This document shows, one piece after another, positions 821-12,940 of a DNA stretch of 64,000 nt (position 1 is the first letter of the stretch; each line of letters starts with the position of its first letter). A program made the position numbers and the translations under genes. The notes under the pieces are model-generated. The model was given only the letters and a program-made list of their open reading frames with translations, ran no database searches and was not told where the DNA came from. Origin of the DNA: Thermodesulfobacteriota bacterium (lineage in GTDB: Bacteria > Desulfobacterota_D > UBA1144 > Nemesobacterales > Mycalebacteriaceae); assembly GCA_965198945.1 (NCBI GenBank), contig CBDAQI010000013.1, positions 160,001 to 224,000 of the forward strand. Direction: 5' to 3'.

Positions 821-3607
821 TTATTCGGTATCGCCTGCAATTCGTTTCATTTCTGATTTAAGAACAGTTTTCCGCAGCAAAAATTCCTCAAGTTTTCCCC
901 TCTCTTTCTGGATGATTTTATCAGGGGCTTTGTTTGTAAAATCAGGATTGGCAAGTTTATGCTCGCAAGCGCTTATTTTTTCGGAGATTTCCCGGATCTG
1001 TCTTTCTATGGCATCCGCGTTTCCGGCGGAGAGATTTCTTTCTTTCTTTTCCGGTTCTATTTTGAGATTGATGTTCAGCCTCCCGGGGATTTCTTTTTTC
1101 GTAATAACAAAAGAGACTGAAAGAGAAAAACCTTTTGCGGAAGAAAACTCTTTTTCATCTTCACAAAAGTGATGGGAGGAGATTCCGGCGAGTTTTTTCA
1201 GTATGGAGATTTCAGATTCAATTAAGGATTTTATGCGCTCCGAATTTTCTCCCGGCTCCGGAAAAAAAGAGACTTTTATTTTTTCAGACACTTTGATTTC
1301 CGCGGCTCCCCTTTTTATACGAATTTCATCAATGAGTCCTTCAAATAAAAATTTCATTTCATTGTATTCGGAGTCAAAGCTTTCCGGCACATTTTCATCA
1401 AACTCAGGGTAGTTTGAATCAAGCAGACTGACGGCTTCGGCACCGGAAAAAATTTTTATTCTCTCGTTTATTTCTTCTGTAATATGAGGGCAGAAAGGGT
1501 GGAGAGCATGTGCCGAGACTGACAGAACATACATAAGAACATGACCTGTTTCCCGTGCTTTTTCCGGGTTTTCACCGTATATTGAAATTTTTGCGGATTC
1601 AATGTAGCGGTCACAAAAGTCTCTCCGGAAAAAACGATATATCTCCCGCGCGGCTTTGCCGAACTCATATTCTTCCATATATTCATCAATGTTTTTTAGA
1701 CATTGTTTGAGACTTGCAAGTATCCATTTGTCGGACCTGCTGAGTTTTGCGGACGGTATAACCCCTTCCCCGCATTTATCAAACCGCCCCGGTTTTTCAT
1801 CAATTTCAAGAATAAAACGCGCCGCATTCCATATCTTGTTCATAAAATTTCTGTATCCCCTGATTGTTGAAAGGGAAAGTTCAATATCTTTTCCGCCCGA
1901 AGTCAGAGCACAGAGACAAAAACGAAGAGCATCAGCGCCGAATTGATCCGCAATTTCAAGAGGGTCTATTACATTGCCCTTGGTTTTGCTCATTTTTTCG
2001 CCCTTCTCATCTCGTATCAGGCCGTGAATGCATATGTCGCCGAAAGGGCTTTTCCCCGTAAATTGAAGTCCGAACATGGCCATGCGCGCCACCCAGAAAA
2101 ATATTATGTCAAACCCGGTTATCAGAACCGTTGTGGGGTAGTATGTTTGGAACAAACGGTCGTCTTCCCGGCCCCAGTTCAGGGTAACAAAAGGCCACAG
2201 AGCGGAAGAAAACCATGTGTCCAGAACATTCGGATCCCTTGTGATTTCAACTTTTTCGCCGTAATGTCTGAAAGAGCTTTCCGCGGCTTTTTTTCCGTCT
2301 TTTTCAACAAACACTTCCCCGTCAGGCCCATACCATGCGGGTATTTGATGCCCCCACCATAGCTGCCGCGATATACACCATGGTTCTATGTTTTTCATCC
2401 ACTGAAAATAGGTGCGTTCCCAGAATTTCGGATAAAATTTCATTTCATCTTTTTCAACTGCCCTGACGGCTTGCCCGGCAAAACTTTTAACGTCCATATA
2501 CCACTGTTCCATAAGACGCGGTTCTATGACGGCTCCCGACCTGTCGCCGTAGGGAACAGTATGTGAAATGTTTTGCGTTTTTTGCAGAAATCCGCCCTCT
2601 TCCAGATCTTTAACAAGCTTTTTTCTCGCTTCAAACCTATCAAGTGTTCTGTATTTTTCGGGCGCATTCTCATTCAGACATGTGTTTTCATCAAAGATGT
2701 TTACTGGAGACAAATTGTGCCTTTTGCCGACTTCAAAATCATTGAAATCATGGGCGGGGGTTATCTTGACCGCGCCGCTTCCTTTTTCGGGATCCGAATA
2801 CTCATCCGCGATTACCGGAACGGATCTTCCGGTGAGAGGCAAATCAACCTCCGTGCCGACAAGGTCTTTATACCTGTCATCTGAAGGATGAACCGCGACC
2901 GCCACATCACCGAACATAGTTTCAGGTCTGGTTGTGGCGACAGTTATATGTCCGTCGCCGTCTTTCAAAGGGTATTTTATATGCCAATAGTGTCCCTGAA
3001 CTTCTTTCTGTTCCACTTCCAGATCAGAAATTGCGGTTTTCAATTTCGGGTCATAGTTAACCAGCCTGTAGTCGCGTCTGATAAATTTTTGCTTGTAAAG
3101 TTCAACAAAAACATCTTTGACGGCATCGGAAAAACCGTCATCCATTGTAAACCTCTGTTTGCTCCAGTCCGGAATAAAACCGAGTCTGCGTATTTGTTCA
3201 AAAATTTTGTCTCCTGATTTTTCCTTGAACTCCCAGACTTTCTCAATAAAATTCTCCTTTCCGATGCTTTCCCTCTCAATCCCTTCCTTTGCAAGTTCAC
3301 GCTCAACAATCATCTGAGTCGCAATTCCCGCATGGTCGGTTCCCGGAACCCAGAGCACATCAAATCCTTTCATTTTTTTATAACGGACGAGAACGTCCTG
3401 AAGAGTGTTGTTGAGGGCATGCCCTATATGCAGAGAGCCCGTAACGTTGGGAGGCGGCATAACAACGGAAAAAACCGGTTTGCCGCCCTTGTCTGTTTTT
3501 AAAGACTTGAATTTTTCATTCTCAAGCCAGAAATTCCGCCATTTTTCCTCAAGCGGGACCGGGTTGTATGTTTTTTCCATGCCTTCCGGAACTGGAGGCA
3601 CGGTCAT
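821..3607 (-). CDS. valS: Valine--tRNA ligase
   Basis: [13 protein letters not shown] (HIGH), [17 protein letters not shown]-terminal coiled coil; ATG overlaps the rpoC stop (ATGA). Confidence 0.98.
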
Positions 3608-6600
3608 ACCCCCAGTTTTTCTTCAAGTTTTTCGGATTGAACTTCTTCCAGAACGGGAACTGGAACCGGAACCTCATCTTCCTGTTTTTGAATTCTGATG
3701 TCTTTATACATCCCAAGCCCGGTGCCCGCAGGTATGATTTTCCCGATAATGACGTTTTCTTTAAGTCCTTTGAGTTTATCCTCTTTGCTTTCGCATGCGG
3801 CTTCGGTAAGAACCTTTGTAGTTTCCTGGAAAGACGCGGCGGAAAGCCAGCTTTCAGTGCTCAAAGAAGAGCGGGTGATTCCAAGTAGCAGAGGTTCGGC
3901 TGTGGCGGGCTTGCCGTCTTGCTCTTCCACTTCAGCATTTTCTTTATGGAAAAAGGTTTTTGTTATATGTTCTCCGGGAAGCATGGTTGTATCTCCCGGA
4001 TCTTTAATTTTGACCCTTTTCAGCATCTGTCTGACTATCACTTCTATATGTTTGTCGTTTATCCTCACACCCTGGAGTTTGTAAACTTCCTGGATCTCTT
4101 TGACCAGAAACTCGCTGAGAGCCTTTTCCCCTTTAATTTTAAGAATATCATGAGGGTTTTCGTCACCATCCACAAGTTTGTCTCCGGAAAACACAAAGTC
4201 TCCTTCTCTCACGAGAATATGCTCTCCTCTCGGAACAATATATTCTTTTTTCTCTCCAACTTCCGGCTGAACAAAAACACGCCTTTTGCCCTTCACGTCT
4301 TCTCCAAATGCAACGGTGCCGTCAATTTCGCTCACTATTGCGAGATCTTTTGGAACACGCGCTTCAAAAAGCTCCGCAACTCTGGGCAAACCACCGGTTA
4401 TGTCTTTTGTTTTGGCGGTTTCTTTGGGAATTTTTGCTATTATGTCTCCGGGTTCCGTCAGGTCGCCGTCGCTTTTTTCAATAATCGCCCCGGTGGGAAG
4501 ATCTTCGGATTGCAGAAGTTCTACGTCGCTCTGCTTTCCCGGGTCTTCAACTATTATTCTTGGTTTAAGTTTTGTGCTTTTGGATTCAATTACAACCTTT
4601 TCAAGCATGCCCGTAACTTCATCAGCCTGCTCCTTAAAGGTTATTCCCATCTCAAGGTCTCTCCATTTAACGGTTCCCGATTTCTCTGAAATAATAGGAG
4701 TCGTGTAGGGATCCCATTCGGCAAGAAGGGTTTTCTCTTTTACTTTTTCTCCGTCTTTGACTTTAAGACGGGAGCCGAGCTCAAGTTTGTATTTTTCTCT
4801 CTCATACCCCTTTTCATCCATAATGGCTATGTTTCCGTTTCTGTTGGTAACAACAAGCTGTCCGTCAGTCGTTTCAGCGGTTTCAAGATTGGACATTTTT
4901 ACCACACCCGCGAGATTATTCTCAAGGGTGGTTTCCATTGCACTCTGGCTTGCGGCTCCGCCTATGTGGAAAGTTCTCATTGTAAGCTGAGTTCCCGGCT
5001 CGCCGATTGACTGCGCAGCCATAATTCCCACGGCCTCACCTATTTCCACTATCTTTCCGGTTGAAAGATTTCTGCCGTAACAGAGGCGGCATATTCCTTC
5101 TTCGGTATCGCAAGTCAAAACCGAACGGATTTTAACTTCACTTATTACGCTTTCGTTGATTTTTGCCGCCGCCTCGTTGTCCACCTCCCGGCCGCTTTTC
5201 ACGATAATTTCCCCCGTTTCCGGGTTTTTCAAATCATCAAGAACTACCCTTCCGAGAACCCTGTCTCCCACATGTTCTCTCACTCTGCCTCCTTCCACCA
5301 AATCGGTATAAAGCAGGCCTTCAATGGTTCCGCAGTTTTCTTCGGTGACTATTATGTCATGCGCAACATCAATCAGTTTTCTTGTAAGATGACCGGCGTT
5401 AGCGGTTTTAAGAGCGGTATCGGCAAGCCCTTTTCTGGCTCCATGGGTTGATATGAAATAGTCCATCACTTTCATGCCTTCTCTGAAATTTGAAGTGATG
5501 GGCTTTTCAATGATCGTGCCGTCCGGCCGTGCCATCAAGCCCCTCATTCCCGCAAGCTGTCTCACCTGTGTTTTGCTTCCGCGCGCGCCGGAATCTATCA
5601 TCATATATATGGGATTTGAACTGGTCCTTTTTATCTCATTGCCTTTTTTATCCGTGGCGGTTTCAAACTTGATGTTTTCCATCATTTCGTCCGCAACTTC
5701 ATCACTTGTTTTGGACCATATATCAACAATTTTGTTGTAGCGCTCTCCGTCCGTTATCAGTCCCTGGGAATACTGTTCCTGAATTTTCATTTCCTCATCA
5801 CGGGCTTCTTTGACAAGAGTTTCCTTGCTGTCCGGAATTTGCATGTCGTCAATTGAGATGGAAATTCCGGATTTGGTGGCGTATTTGAAGCCGAGCGTTC
5901 TTATTCGGTCAGCCATAACAACCGTTTCCTTGCCGCCGTTCATTCTAAAGCAGGTGTCCACAAGACTTTCAACTTCCCCTTTACTCATGGGTTTGTTAAT
6001 GAGGTCAAAAGGAATTGTTTTTGGAATGGCCTCATCGTAGAGAATTGCCCTTCCCACGGTTGTTTCAATAATTTCATCATTAATTCTGATTTTTATCTGA
6101 GCGTGAATATCAACGTGACCGGAATGATAGGCCATCACAACTTCTTCCGGCGATGAAAAGTATTTGCCCTCCCCCTTGCTATGAGAGGAATCTTTGGTCA
6201 TATAGTAAACTCCGAGCACAATATCCTGGGTCGGCAGAATAACCGGCTTTCCGTGCGCCGGGGAAAGTATGTTGTTTGTTGACATAACAAGTGTGCGGCA
6301 CTCGGCCTGTGCCTCAATTGACAGAGGGACATGAACGGCCATCTGGTCGCCATCAAAATCTGCGTTATAGGCGGGGCAAACGAGCGGGTGAACCCTGATT
6401 GACCTGTCTTCAACAAGCACGGGCTCAAAAGCCTGAATGCTCAATTTGTGAAGTGTCGGCGCCCTGTTGAGCATAACCATATGCTCTTTGATAACGTCAT
6501 CAAGGGCATCCCAAACCACCGGAGCGCCGGTTTCAACAAACTTTTTCGCTATTTTAATTGTCGGCGCGACCGAACTTCCGTCTTTATTCTTCAGTTCCTG

Positions 6601-8496
6601 AAGTTTTTGATAGATGAACGGCTTGAAAAGCTCAAGAGCCATCTGTTTTGGAAGCCCGCACTGGTGAAGCTTCAAGTTCGGGCCAACCGTAATAACCGAA
6701 CGTCCCGAATAGTCCACCCTTTTCCCGAGCAGATTCTGGCGGAATCTTCCGCTTTTGCCTTTGATAATATCCGTCAGACTTTTCAGAGGGCGGTGGTTGT
6801 GTCCCAAAACGGGTCTGCCCCTCCTTCCGTTCTCAAACAAAGCGTCAACGGCTTCTTGAAGCATTCTTTTTTCGTTTCTGACAATAATGTCCGGCGCATC
6901 CAGTTCCAGAAGTCTTTTCAATCTGTTGTTTCTGTTTATGACCCTTCTGTATAAAACATTGAGGTCTGAAGTGGCAAAACGCCCTCCGTGGGGAACCAGG
7001 GGACGAAGGTCCGGAGGCAATACCGGAATGGTCTTCAAAACCATCCATTCGGGGCGGTTGTTTGATTTGCGGAATGTCTCACATATTTTGCGTCTTTTCG
7101 CTATTTTCGCTTTTTTCAAAGGAGAACTGGATTCCTGCATTTCAGTTTTCAGTTCTTCCGAGAGAGCCTTTAAATCAATGCTTTTCAACATGTCATAAAT
7201 GGCTTCCGCTCCCATTCCGTATGTGTAGTTAACCTCAAAGCCGTCATCCGCTTCGAGAAGTATGCTGATTTCCTCTTTCGTGAAAGAAGCCTTAATGAGC
7301 TTGCCGAACTCATCCTGGTCTTTTTTCATTTTGTCTCTAACTTTTATCAGCTGCTCATAATCCTCTCTAAAATGTGAAGGAACCTCTTCGCCTTCGGCTT
7401 CCGCTTTTTTCATTTTTCTCTCTGCGTCTCTGTAAGACCTGCGCATTTCAGAGTGTTTTTTGCCCTTCTCGCCTTTTAGAAGGTTGTCGCGTGACAGACC
7501 AACCACTTCATCTTCTGCGGTTTGTGAAAGTTCTTTGAAAGCATCGCGTATTTTTTTATCGCTTGCGGGAATCTCTTCCAGTCCGAGAGTTTTGTAGTGT
7601 TCTCCGAACTGATTCTTAAAGTCCTCCCTGGCGGACTGAAAAATATCCATTGCGGTTTTGGGTTTGTCGCCGACCCGGTCTTTTTCCAACTCGGAAACTT
7701 TGGCGTCATATACTTTCCGCTCGTTTTCGTAATTTTTTTTAGCATCCAGAAAAGAATAAATCCTGCGCCTGATCTCGTGTTCGGAAAAACCTTTTTTGCC
7801 GGACAAAAGACCCTGCAATGAAAATTTTGCGGCCACTTCCCCCGGCACGAGATATTTATACCAGAAATCCTTCACCAGAGACATTTCTTCTTCACTCATC
7901 AATAAAGAAACGAGACGTTCCACGTCTTCCTCAGTTTCAAGGTGGGTAAAATCCTGCTCGGAAACTTTTTCAAGAGAGGGAATGACATACTCCGCTTTTC
8001 TCAAACTGGCCAGATCCTCACCCGTGAGAATTTGTCCCATTTTAAGAGAGGAATTGGCCGGGTCTATGACCACGTTGGATTCGTAGTAGAGAACCCTGTC
8101 AAGGTCTTTGAGACTCATATCAAGAATCATCCCTATGCGGCTTGGAGTGCTGCGCAGGAACCAGATATGAACAACCGGTGAGGCAAGGTCTATATGAGCC
8201 ATCCTTTCCCGTCTTAACTTTGAAGTTGTGACTTCCACGCCGCACTTTTCACAGACGATGCCCCTGTGTTTCAGTCTCTTGTATTTCCCGCAGGCACACT
8301 CGTAATCCTTGACCGGACCGAAGATTTTAGGGCAGAACAAGCCATTTTTTTCAGGTTTGAAGGTTCTGTAATTTATTGTCTCGGGTTTTTTAACTTCCCC
8401 GTGAGACCATGATTTTATGGCTTCGGGAGATGCTATTGATATCTGGACCCCGGAATAATCGTCCGCTTTGTTTGTTATCATATCTTCAAAATTCAC
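3604..8496 (-). CDS. rpoC: RNA polymerase beta' subunit, 1630 aa from GTG, with a ~250-aa insertion
   Basis: NADFDGD catalytic motif, Zn ribbon CACGKYK…[23 protein letters not shown] at 8496 preceded by a GGAGG RBS (the track start at 8556 overlaps rpoB). Confidence 0.98.
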
Positions 8497-8515
8497 TTTT
8501 TTGCCGCCTCCATTT

Positions 8516-11500
8516 TTAAAGCTCTGATGACGCCCGCAATTCCATTTCGCGGTCACTGTCTGAAGTTAGTTCAATCTGCAAACCGAGAGATTGAAGCTCT
8601 TTTCTTAAAACATTGAAAGATTCCGGAATACCCGGGTCAAGAGACATTTTGCCTTCAACTATTGAGGCAAACATCTTTGTTCTTCCTGCAACATCATCTG
8701 ACTTAACCGTCAGGAATTCCTGAAGCGTATGAGCTGCTCCGTAGGCTTCAAGCGCCCAGACTTCCATTTCACCAAGCCTCTGTCCTCCGAAGTGAGCTTT
8801 TCCTCCGAGCGGCTGCTGTGTCACAAGAGAATACGGCCCTATTGAACGCGCGTGTATTTTCTCTTCAACAAGGTGATGAAGCTTCAGCATATACATAATT
8901 CCCACAGTTACTTTCTGGTCAAAAGGCTCGCCGGTGCGTCCGTCAAACAAAGTTGTTTTTCCGTCTCCCGGCAGGTCTGCAATTTTCATAAAACTTTTTA
9001 TTTCCTCTTCCGTGGCGCCGTCAAAAACGGGAGAAGCAATGGGAATTCCCTCTTTAAGGGCTTTCACAAGATCATAAACCTGCTCATCTTTTATTGTGTC
9101 TATGAAAGACTTGTCACCATGAGTTTTTCCATAGAATTCTTTCAATTTGTCTTTAATGGCTCCGGGACTGTAATTTTTTTCTATATATTCATTGATTTGA
9201 CTGCCGATTTTTTTGCTTGCCCATCCCAGATGTGTTTCAAGAACCTGGCCCACATTCATCCTTGAGGGAACCCCGAGAGGGTTAAGGACCATGTCAACCG
9301 GTGTTCCGTCAGCCATATAGGGCATATCTTCCTGAGGAAGAATTCTTGATACGACACCCTTGTTTCCATGGCGTCCCGCCATTTTGTCTCCCACCTGCAG
9401 ATTCATTTTGACCGCGACATAAACCTTCACAGTTTTCAAAACACCGGGGGCAAGGTCGTCTTTCTGCTCAATTTTTTTAATTCTTTCCTCATGTTTCCGC
9501 TTTGCATCACTGATGTCTTTGATGCACAAATCCGCTTTTTCTTTGAGTGTTTCAGATAACGACTTAGGCTCAACTTTAATGTTTTGAATTTCTTCAAGGG
9601 TGAGCCGCTTCAGAGCTTCAATTTTAAAAGAGTCTCCTTTTGAAATAAGGTTTTCTCCTTCTCTGGTAATATTTGAAGACGCTTTTTTATCTTTTAACAG
9701 AGAGCATATTTCTTTGTCGGCACTCTCTCGTAAAATTGTCGTCTCCAGTTCCATTTCCTGTCTTATTTTTTTAATTTCTCTGACTTCAATCTCCTGAACT
9801 CTGGAGCTTTTTTCCGAAACTGCGCGAGAGGTCAGAACTTTGACATCTATAACCGTGCCGGCAATTGAGGAATGACTTCTCAGAGAAGTGTCTTTGACTT
9901 CTCTTGCTTTGTCTCCAAATATCGCACGCAGAAGTTTTTCTTCCTGAGACAGACGCGTCTCGCCCTTGGGCGATATTTTCCCCACAAGGATATCTCCCAT
10001 GTTCACGGTGGCTCCAACCCTTATTATTCCGCTCTCATCAAGATTTTTTATCGCATCTTCACCGATATTGGTAATGTCCCGGGTTATTTCCTCTTTGCCC
10101 AGCTTTGTTTCCCTGGCCTGACATTCAAATTCGTCTACGTGAATTGAGGTGAAAACATCATCTTTGACTATTCTTTCACTTATGAGAATTGCATCCTCAA
10201 AGTTGTATCCCCCCCAGGGCATAAAGGCCACCATCACATTCTGACCCAGGGCAAGCTCACCGTTTTTGGTGGAAGGGCCGTCCGCAATAATCTGTCCCTT
10301 TGAAACTTTCTGTCCCTTTGAAACTATCGGAGTCTGATTCCAGCAGGTTCCCTGGTTGGATTTGCAGAATTTGACCATTTTGTATGTCTCAATTCCGGAC
10401 ACTGAAGAGTTTGCGGACTTGCCCGGTTTGCTGTTTTTCACCATTATGACTTCCGAGTCGGCATGGATTACCTCGCCGTCCTCCCGGGCCACGAGAGCAA
10501 CGCCCGAGTCTTTGGCAACAGATGATTCAAGCCCCGTTCCCACAATCGGTGAAACGGCTCTTATCAGGGGAGTCGCCTGCCTCTGCATGTTTGAACCCAT
10601 AAGAGCTCTGTTAGCGTCATCATGTTCAAGAAAAGGTATTAAAGAAGCGGAGATTGAAACAAGCTGGGAGGGAGAAACATCCATATGAGTAACTTTATCT
10701 TTCTCCACCATTTTAATCTCGCCTTCGGAACGGGAAGAGACAAAGTCAAGAATAAAACGCCCGTCCTCATCAAGCGGCGCATTTGCCTGCGCAATCACTA
10801 TGTTTTTCTCTTCCTCTTCCAGTGCGCTCATTTTGACCGTCTTGTCTGTAACAACACCATTCTCAACAACACGGTAGGGAGCCCTTATGAATCCTAAGTC
10901 ATCAATTTCAGCATATGTGCTTATGCTTGATATGAGACCAATATTGGGCCCTTCCGGAGTTTCCACCGGACAGATTCGGCCGTAATGAGATGAGTGGACA
11001 TCTCTGACGGCAAACCCCGCTCTTTCCCGTGTCAGCCCTTTCGGGCCCAAAGCGCTGAGACGTCTCTTGTGGGTTATTTCCGAAAGCGGGTTGGTTTGAT
11101 CCATAAACTGTGAAAGCTGACCCGTTTTGAAAAAGTCTTTTACGATTGTGTCCACAACTTTCGGGACGACAATTTCTCTGGGCATTTTATTCTCAATACT
11201 CTGGTAACCAATCCTTTCTTTAACCGACCGCGCAAAACGTTCAAGACCGCTGTAGAAGGTTTCTTCTATCAACTCTCCGACAGTTTTCACTCTCCGGTTG
11301 CCCAGATGGTCAATATCATCCACCTGTCTGCGCCCGCCCTTCAGTTCAAGGAGGTATTTCAATGTTTGAATTATGTCTTCCCTGGTCAGAGTGAGTATTG
11401 TTTCGTCAACATTGTGTTTGAGTTTGTAGTTGAGTTTTTTCCTGCCGACCTGAGAAAGTCTGTATTTGGATGGATTGAAGAACATATCGGAGAAAAATGT

Positions 11501-12940
11501 TCGCGCAATCTCTTTACTCGGAGGATCTGTCGGCCGGAATTTTCTGTATATTTCAGCAATGGCACCGTCGCAAAAGACTTCAACTTCGGCCCCTATTGCG
11601 GAAAATGCGTCTCTAATCCCGCTGACTTCGGAAAGATGCAGGTTTTCAAAGGAGACCTCTTCGTTTTTGATAATATCAACATAACCGGGGGACTTCTTCA
11701 GTTCCTTTGAAAATTCATTTTTCCCGGCGCCCGCACGTTTCACATTCAAAGCGAATGTTCCGTTGATTGAGTTCCCGTAAATTCTTTTTTCTTCAAGAAG
11801 AGTGTCCGCAATTGAAAAAGGCACCGAAATATCGTCCATATAGTAAAAGGAAATTTTTTCAATTGAATTTTCCTTTAAAGATTTAATTGTCTCTTCGGTT
11901 ATTTTTTCTCCCAGGCGCGCTATGACCTCCCCGTTTTTATTTATGATGTTTTCAGCGCATATTTTTTCAAACAAGTCGGATTCACTTTCCAGCGGAATGG
12001 AATCTATATTCAGACTTTTCAGTTTTTCAACTGTTCTTGCCGTGAATTTTCTTCCTTTTTTAACGACTACTTCATCTCCCTTTTTGATATCCGCAAAGCT
12101 TTTCTGATGAATAATCGTTTCAGGGTTTATTTTTTTTAAGAGACCGCCTTGATTGTCAAACCTGACAGTTTCCATGCTGTAGAAATGATCAAGAATTTCT
12201 CTTTCCGTATATCCGAGAGCTTTGAGAAAAAGGGTGACAAGAAATCTTTTCCTACGGTCAATACGGACATTTAGAAAGCTTTTTGAGTCAAAGTCAAAAT
12301 CAAGCCACCTGCCGTCTTGGGGAATCACTCTTGCCACGAAAGACTCTCTTCCGGAGGCCTGAGACTGGTCTCCGAGTTTGGGGCCGTCAAAAAGCACTCC
12401 CGGAGAGCGGTGTATTTGATTTACAATAACTCTTTCGGCGCCGCCTATTATGAATGAACCGTTTGCGGTCATTTTAGGAATTTCACCGAAATAAACATCC
12501 TGCTCCGTTACGTCGCGAATCCCGTCTCCGTCTTCTTCCCAGACAATCAGACGCAGGGTGACGTAAAGCGAAACCGTATGGTCATAATTTTTGAGCTTGC
12601 ACTCCATTTCATCAAATTTGGGATTCAGGTCATAAATTTCGTGCCCGTTTTTATCTTTCAAACCCTTGCCGTCTTCGCCTACAACTCTCTGACCCAGACT
12701 GTAGTGAACAAAGTCAAGAGAAGTTCTCTCAGCATAATTTTCTATGGGGAAAACAGCCTTGAAAACGGCTTGCAGTCCGTGATTTTTTCTCCGTGCCCTG
12801 TCTTCCGGAGCAACATCCTCCTGGAGGAATTTTTTATAAGATTCCGTCTGGACATTCAGAAGGTTTGGAATTTCTTGAATAGCCGGTATTTTTGAAAAAG
12901 TTCTTCTTAAATTTATCCCATCAAAATTTTTAGAATTCAA
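8516..12940 (-). CDS. rpoB: RNA polymerase beta subunit, 1474 aa, with extra insertions
   Basis: [51 protein letters not shown] start after AGGAGG. Confidence 0.98.

Follow-up and report, generated by a model that had tools for sequence, protein, structure and literature searches.

Residues 144–179 of the E. coli RNA polymerase β′ subunit form the clamp-toe, which the available portion of one published account names as a hot spot for lineage-specific inserts and as a contact site for the protein Crl (10.1101/726851). The same portion reports that deletion of the clamp-toe in E. coli leaves basal transcription unaffected. A second account, likewise available in part, describes contacts that the clamp-toe makes in the closed complex with the non-conserved region of sigma and that affect promoter escape (PMC7822876).

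Two unrelated inserts at the clamp-toe spacer, one mycobacterial and one from Thermus, influence the way in which RNA polymerase encounters sigma and promoter DNA. According to the accessible text of PMC5511352, the actinobacterial insert β′i1 is about 90 residues long, consists of two antiparallel helices, spans the cleft entrance and is asymmetric in charge. Its counterpart in Deinococcus-Thermus, β′i2 or the β′ non-conserved domain, comprises five sandwich-barrel hybrid motifs, takes part in sigma binding and is inserted at exactly the same point as β′i1 (PMC5511352). More broadly, a 2024 survey of β and β′ describes, in the sections available, insert classes termed HABAS, BEAN and sLC at seven β′ sites, two of which lie in domain bD2 (PMC11515920).

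Here we report on a 64,000-nucleotide stretch of bacterial DNA (the window) in which the gene for β′ carries about 250 additional codons at this location. We read the encoded insert as a third class, unrelated to the other two, at an established hot spot: an orphan sequence, predicted to be all-alpha, that is carried by a single genus. An earlier note, made from the letters of the window, had proposed a new class of RNA polymerase appendage. This description is fair with regard to sequence and fold, although lineage-specific inserts at this hot spot are well known. A third unrelated module restricted to one genus would indicate that the clamp-toe spacer is still acquiring domains recently, besides having done so on deep branches. 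The insert is also a fairly clean candidate for a domain of untraceable ancestry born inside an essential, highly conserved enzyme. Its host organisms are uncultured, and close relatives that carry the same enzyme without the insert provide a natural comparison.

An in-frame insert in β′ of a single genus

The host gene encodes RpoC, as its product contains Rpb1 domains 1 to 5 in order (Pfam PF04997, PF00623, PF04983, PF05000 and PF04998; E 7e-78 to 3e-23, all far over cut-off) as well as the catalytic loop NADFDGD. The GTG codon listed in Table 1 is likely its start, because the sequence GGAGG lies 10 nt upstream and the resulting N-terminus (VNFEDM) lines up with the starts of two relatives (MEFEDM and MDFEDI). 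A β′ of the length proposed in the earlier note agrees with this start, whereas the database gene call begins five codons later, at ATG 8481 (1625 aa). The surroundings are an ordinary nusG-rplA-rplJ-rpoB-rpoC cluster followed by valS, with rpoB directly upstream of rpoC. The start of valS overlaps the rpoC stop by 4 nt, and such tight packing fits a reduced genome. Two open frames antisense to rpoC (256 and 168 codons) are probably chance ORFs.

The insert was delimited by alignment to reference β′ chains. Specifically, a phmmer comparison of the N-terminal 594 aa with PDB chains matches query residues 4–157 to E. coli β′ 12–165, and query residues 412–594 to E. coli 169–352. Approximately 250 residues of the window protein are therefore without a counterpart in E. 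coli, where positions 165 and 169 flank only three residues. By this alignment, the insert splits the clamp-toe helix between the equivalents of E. coli Y165 and L169, and constitutes extra sequence between conserved blocks, within the equivalent of E. coli 144–179 (clamp-toe limits as given in the available parts of 10.1101/726851 and PMC7822876). The range 7240–7986 proposed in the earlier note captures the same feature but is shifted by about 15–20 nt from the limits set by alignment. The same comparison places Thermus residue 454 just past the insertion site, where E. coli has about residues 175–181. Given this placement, and given that β′i1 and β′i2 share one insertion point, the insert is assigned by alignment to the same spacer as these two inserts, within the clamp-toe helix.

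Comparison with relatives yields a matching picture. When 30 loci were cut out, the segment from the N-terminus to the conserved DYSGRS block measured 592 aa in the window and 588–600 aa in the four other complete members of the genus. In the other families of the order, 23 of 24 loci have a segment of 342 aa, and the last has one of 344 aa. The insert is missing from all 24 of these aligned kin loci. Its reading frame is free of stops in 6/6 genomes of the genus, three of which carry it on single contigs, and two additional database proteins have it in the identical position. Finally, Logan contigs from two samples of one study span positions 6900–8400 identically, with no joint or indel, although the window itself may derive from one of these samples. 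Thus alignment, segment lengths, open frames and contigs all bear out the roughly 250 extra residues that had been noticed in the letters alone. We conclude that it is a real, translated, in-frame lineage-specific insertion in RNA polymerase β′.

A contrary explanation would place the extra sequence outside the mature protein, as an assembly artefact, an intein, an intron or the remnant of a mobile element. We regard this as exceedingly improbable. The insert occupies one site in the genomes of six species and in the two database proteins, its contigs from two samples are jointless, its fold is predicted to be all-alpha, and it is constrained at the amino-acid level (see below). Moreover, its GC content is the same as that of the remainder of rpoC, and the only direct or inverted DNA repeats at its flanks are matches of 12–17 nt, a size expected by chance.

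The distribution of the insert is equally sharp. In whole-genome searches it was found in 6/6 genomes of the window's genus (one copy is cut by a contig end) and in 0/35 genomes from the seven other families of the order. Phylum-wide, it occurs in 6 of 120 genomes (0/114 outside the genus) and in 1 of 32 genera, always in a single copy within rpoC, and no free-standing paralogue is present in the 120 genomes. The insert is therefore confined to one clade and absent from the sister groups, and it goes back to a single gain in the ancestor of one genus of Dadabacteria with small genomes. In NCBI records, the insert-bearing β′ of a close relative carries the label Candidatus Mycalebacterium sp. 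Genomes of this genus, at 1.2–1.6 Mb, are the smallest in the order, where others are mostly 1.8–3.8 Mb.

Table 1. Positions of the host gene, the parts of the insert and other features mentioned in the text. Positions refer to the window unless a genome handle is given.
Feature	Position	Strand	Remarks
valS	821-3607	-	928 aa; directly after rpoC
rpoC (RNA polymerase β′)	3604-8496	-	1630 aa from GTG at 8496
rpoC open frame	3604-8556	-	
Antisense open frame in rpoC	3919-4689	+	256 codons
Antisense open frame in rpoC	6448-6954	+	168 codons
Lineage-specific insert, ~250 aa	7255-8007	-	Residues about 164-414 of β′; limits by alignment
N-side boundary helix, candidate copy of the ancestral clamp-toe helix	7987-8028	-	Aligns with ITEDEYR of kin and E. 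coli 159-165; predicted helix 9-19
Acidic N-terminal part	7792-7986	-	Short helices and conserved VKDYWYK..P.E...KFSLQ..SGK.G (6-sequence alignment); pLDDT 48-71
Two long predicted helices	7585-7782	-	Model 89-120 and 127-154 (AlphaFold2); mean pLDDT of 10-residue blocks 51-85
Most conserved motif	7537-7596	-	Y-K-x-L-x-L-x(3)-P-x-S-x(2)-K-I-x(2)-A-F (7-sequence alignment)
Basic helical pair (predicted)	7291-7473	-	Model 192-219 and 227-252; split by invariant P-x-H of EEVPPHL
C-side boundary helix, candidate second copy of the clamp-toe helix	7243-7284	-	Net charge -3 to -6; followed by a stretch aligning with E. coli 169-185
rpoB	8516-12940		Directly upstream of rpoC; rplJ, rplA and nusG further upstream
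Extra segment of rpoB, ~68 aa	11573-11785	-	β residues 386-456
Extra segment of rpoB, 22 aa	12623-12688	-	β residues 85-106
sigma A gene	G000:C5:73800-77000		
rpoB of an other-family relative	G012:C1:95571-97931		Frame of 1603 aa; match split at query residues 313/316

Relatives, predicted structure and comparison with known inserts

Database searches with the insert alone, a check that the earlier note had suggested, reveal no relative outside the genus. A word search of 5.8 billion proteins returned 3 matches among 2171 candidates, all of them β′ of the window's genus. A profile search of 1.84 billion representatives gave one true match, again β′ of this genus; these representatives stand for clusters at 50% identity, such that an insert-bearing β′ may sit behind a representative that lacks the insert. 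The same search returned a repetitive coiled-coil surface protein (E 5.7e-4), which we took as spurious. When six insert sequences were compared with Pfam at E <= 10, no family matched more than three of the six, and all matches were coiled-coil-like noise. A profile search of the PDB matched only the conserved flank (28 residues) and a pair of designed helical proteins, and none of the 39 matches at E <= 10 was an actinobacterial or Thermus chain.

Several specific identities were considered and rejected. For the J domain (PF00226), a six-frame genome scan matches dnaJ only, an hhalign comparison with the J domain of the same genome gives a probability of 1.5%, and the insert alignment lacks an HPD motif. 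For the helix-hairpin-helix families PF00633 and PF14520, six-frame genome scans at E <= 10 give 6 and 12 matches, respectively, none in rpoC. Homology to the mycobacterial insert was likewise set aside: a phmmer alignment of the flank ran partly into that insert, and we took this as compositional. Literature searches on RNA polymerase insertions, on the clamp and on Mycalebacterium yielded no description of the present insert. The words 'helical' and 'coiled' are absent from the main text of PMC11515920, and a word search of one of its supplements yielded no mention of 'Dadabacteria'.

The structure of the insert with short anchors was predicted by AlphaFold2 from a 7-row alignment, giving a model of medium confidence (pLDDT 67.4, pTM 0.43). 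In this model 146 of 296 residues reach a pLDDT of 70 or more, and the N-terminal part is poorly predicted. The predicted insert contains only helices, at least ten in number, four of which are long (26–32 residues; the two pairs given in Table 1). The only strands in the model are two of 2 residues each, both in the flanks. A separate prediction of the whole 592-residue N-terminus (pLDDT 55) is too poor for placing the insert on the clamp. Searches by structure are consistent with those by sequence. Foldseek returned nothing from the PDB at E <= 0.001, and the best ESM Atlas values (0.75 for the whole insert, 0.82 for its residues 1–105) are below the level that shuffled sequences reach one-third of the time. 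A wide VIA-align fold search gave a flat list of generic alpha-hairpins; its best Z of 8.5 is in the range of common arrangements for helical models, and the hairpins cover model residues 85–256 only, hardly sampling the N-terminal part.

The insert has an estimated mass of about 29 kDa (from 250 residues) and contains 47 K+R and 57 D+E in 250 residues. This composition and the all-helical model agree with its earlier description as E/K/R-rich and mostly helix-like. The predicted helices differ in charge: those of the N-terminal part carry -1 to -4, whereas helices 127–154, 192–219 and 227–252 carry 0 to +5 in every species. Within the basic pair the net charge is +1 to +5 per helix in 7/7 sequences, with invariant K196, H198, R202, P223, H225, K241, K242 and K249 (model numbering). 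The insert as a whole has a net charge of -2 to -10 among six full-length sequences. The most conserved motif contributes Y151, L154, L156, P160, S162, K165, I166, A169 and F170 as positions invariant in 7/7 sequences, and the residues listed for the basic pair are K, H and R in GK.H..MR, the P-x-H of EEVPPHL and three further lysines. The earlier note had called the insert multi-domain. The model does present an acidic portion with short helices and a basic portion with long ones (overall pLDDT 67), but it establishes no domain boundary between them.

How, then, does the insert compare with those already described? As the earlier note had stated, the region hosts β′i1 and β′i2. Like β′i1 (Mycobacterium β′ about 140–230), the insert lies in the clamp-tip spacer, is highly charged and asymmetric in charge, and is alpha-helical by prediction. 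Unlike β′i1, which is a single two-helix hairpin of about 90 residues with homologues only in Actinobacteria, it runs to about 250 residues, is predicted to form at least ten helices and belongs to a different lineage. The Deinococcus-Thermus insert β′i2 shares its spacer and has a similar size but is built of beta-rich sandwich-barrel hybrid (SBHM/HABAS) repeats, whereas the medium-confidence model of the insert is all-alpha with no strand inside it, and the two have no sequence match. Size, helix number and fold, together with the PDB search described above, support the view that the insert looks like neither known kind. With respect to the E. coli clamp-toe itself, the flanks of the insert align on both sides and both boundary helices resemble the clamp-toe helix. 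In E. coli, however, the contacts with Crl and with the sigma non-conserved region are experimental, while any contacts of the insert are putative. Domain bD2 of the 2024 survey may correspond to the clamp-toe. The insert resembles the inserts in the available sections of this survey in being a lineage-specific β′ insertion (PMC11515920), and its predicted all-helical fold differs from the beta-containing folds of the HABAS, BEAN and sLC classes.

Divergence, constraint and possible origin

The insert is the fastest-evolving part of β′. Within the genus it is 52% identical, versus 92–94% for its flanks, and its dN of 0.375 is approximately eight-fold that of the flanks (0.044–0.056). Values of dN/dS for defined pairs are 0.11–0.30, reaching 0.41 for thirds of the insert, and are rough since dS is saturated at about 2. 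Even so, these values do not suggest neutral drift. The length of the insert is near-constant, with indels limited to a few loops, and 25 positions in the insert or at its C-terminal edge are invariant in seven sequences, including six Lys/Arg and two His.

This pattern can be read in two ways. On one reading, the insert is a tolerated addition: a charged sequence with a tendency to form helices emerged in a permissive loop on the surface, for instance through local duplication followed by expansion, and folds harmlessly with little or no role in transcription. Its rapid divergence relative to the flanks is in keeping with this, as is its failure to match any known motif or fold. Furthermore, the available part of 10.1101/726851 reports that the E. 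coli clamp-toe is dispensable for basal transcription. The clamp-toe site tolerates change, and an insert placed there need not do anything. We nevertheless consider a role-free insert somewhat unlikely, though it is the most serious rival to the explanation favoured below. Its dN/dS lies well below 1, its length is held near-constant with small loop indels only (even though synonymous sites are saturated between species), and charged and His residues are invariant besides hydrophobic ones. For comparison, other inserts are 49–58% identical to the copy in the window, somewhat more diverged than the N-terminal sigma A halves of these genomes (58–63%). Finally, the insert has persisted in genomes that are the most reduced of the order, which disfavours the role-free reading.

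The ends of the insert offer a hint of how it may have arisen. The boundary helices at both ends resemble the single clamp-toe helix of relatives, and the best internal match of the N-side helix is the C-side boundary helix (rank 1 of 242 windows, z 3.95). Because a putative copy of the clamp-toe helix flanks each end, the insert may have arisen via local duplication of this helix. Three observations weaken the case. The match spans 14 residues that are acidic, amphipathic and compositionally biased, and the likeness was noticed before being tested; a scan of the insert for internal repeats of 24 residues gave a best score of 15.3, compared with a shuffled maximum of 15.2 +/- 2.5; and the flanking DNA lacks repeats other than the chance-sized matches noted above.

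Possible roles at the cleft entrance

Our best explanation, which we put forward tentatively from position and charge pattern, is that the insert enlarges the clamp-toe, touches sigma A and/or promoter DNA where the cleft opens, and thereby tunes initiation. The acidic N-terminal part and the bundle of long, net-basic helices would project from the clamp tip. There the insert would lie beside sigma domain 2, region 1.2, the sigma non-conserved region and the DNA entering the cleft. Contact with sigma A and/or promoter DNA could then tune the formation or stability of the open complex, or promoter escape. We propose such a role by analogy with the unrelated inserts at the same site, for which cleft gating in mycobacteria and sigma binding in Thermus have been proposed.

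Several features are in line with an enlarged clamp-toe, namely the site, the published contacts made there, the distribution, the constraint, the charge pattern, the all-helical prediction and the boundary helices. On the other side stand the fastest divergence within β′, the medium confidence of the model and the dispensability of the E. coli clamp-toe noted above. In addition, the net acidity of the whole insert does not favour general DNA binding. The earlier note had placed the insert near downstream DNA. This was imprecise, because the host element is the clamp-toe, with its published contacts to sigma and Crl. The mycobacterial insert at this location crosses the cleft entrance according to the accessible text of PMC5511352.

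Alternatively, the insert might serve as a docking platform for a lineage-specific regulator or for a second RNA polymerase, without touching sigma A or DNA. Crl uses the E. coli clamp-toe as a docking site (10.1101/726851, available part), mycobacterial RNA polymerase is reported to oligomerise (PMC9886945, available part), and the conserved basic and His residues could make a protein interface. However, no candidate partner was identified, the gene cluster around rpoC is an ordinary one, and CarD and Mfd are present in 41/41 genomes searched and so do not co-vary with the insert. We judge a docking role unlikely.

The enlarged clamp-toe favoured here can be extended to a bolder scheme, which we think quite improbable. 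In this scheme, the insert would be a domain of recent birth that grew from a duplicated clamp-toe helix and moved a sigma-borne function onto the core enzyme. Its acidic part might serve where the cleft opens as a DNA mimic or as a gate built into the enzyme, and promoter DNA might be clamped by the basic helices, perhaps together with the ~68-aa β segment of Table 1. If true, the initiation machinery of this genome-reduced lineage would have been remodelled in a coordinated way.

Bearing on this scheme, components of the transcription machinery other than β′ also vary in length between the genus and its relatives. ORFs for the primary sigma factor are 474–498 aa long in the genus, versus 501–552 aa in relatives (one of 610). 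The acidic tail that precedes region 1.2 of sigma A is at most 30–43 residues in four of the five members of the genus compared, with a still shorter tail in the other one, versus 61–83 residues in the seven relatives with a readable start; in two more, the open frame allows about 70. From region 1.2 to region 2.4, sigma measures 312–317 aa in the genus, compared with 328–332 aa in 6/7 relatives and 305 aa in the seventh, and the interval between regions 1.2 and 2.1 is a net 12–17 residues shorter in the genus than in most relatives.

The β subunit differs in the opposite direction. Its ORFs span 1494–1516 aa in the genus, versus mostly 1372–1431 aa in relatives, and are thus about 100 aa longer. 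Relative to three relatives, β of the genus has two extra segments (Table 1), the larger of which maps between residues of about 357 and 367 of gamma-proteobacterial β. A relative from another family has an rpoB frame that is longer still, and the split in its match suggests a different, independent β insert.
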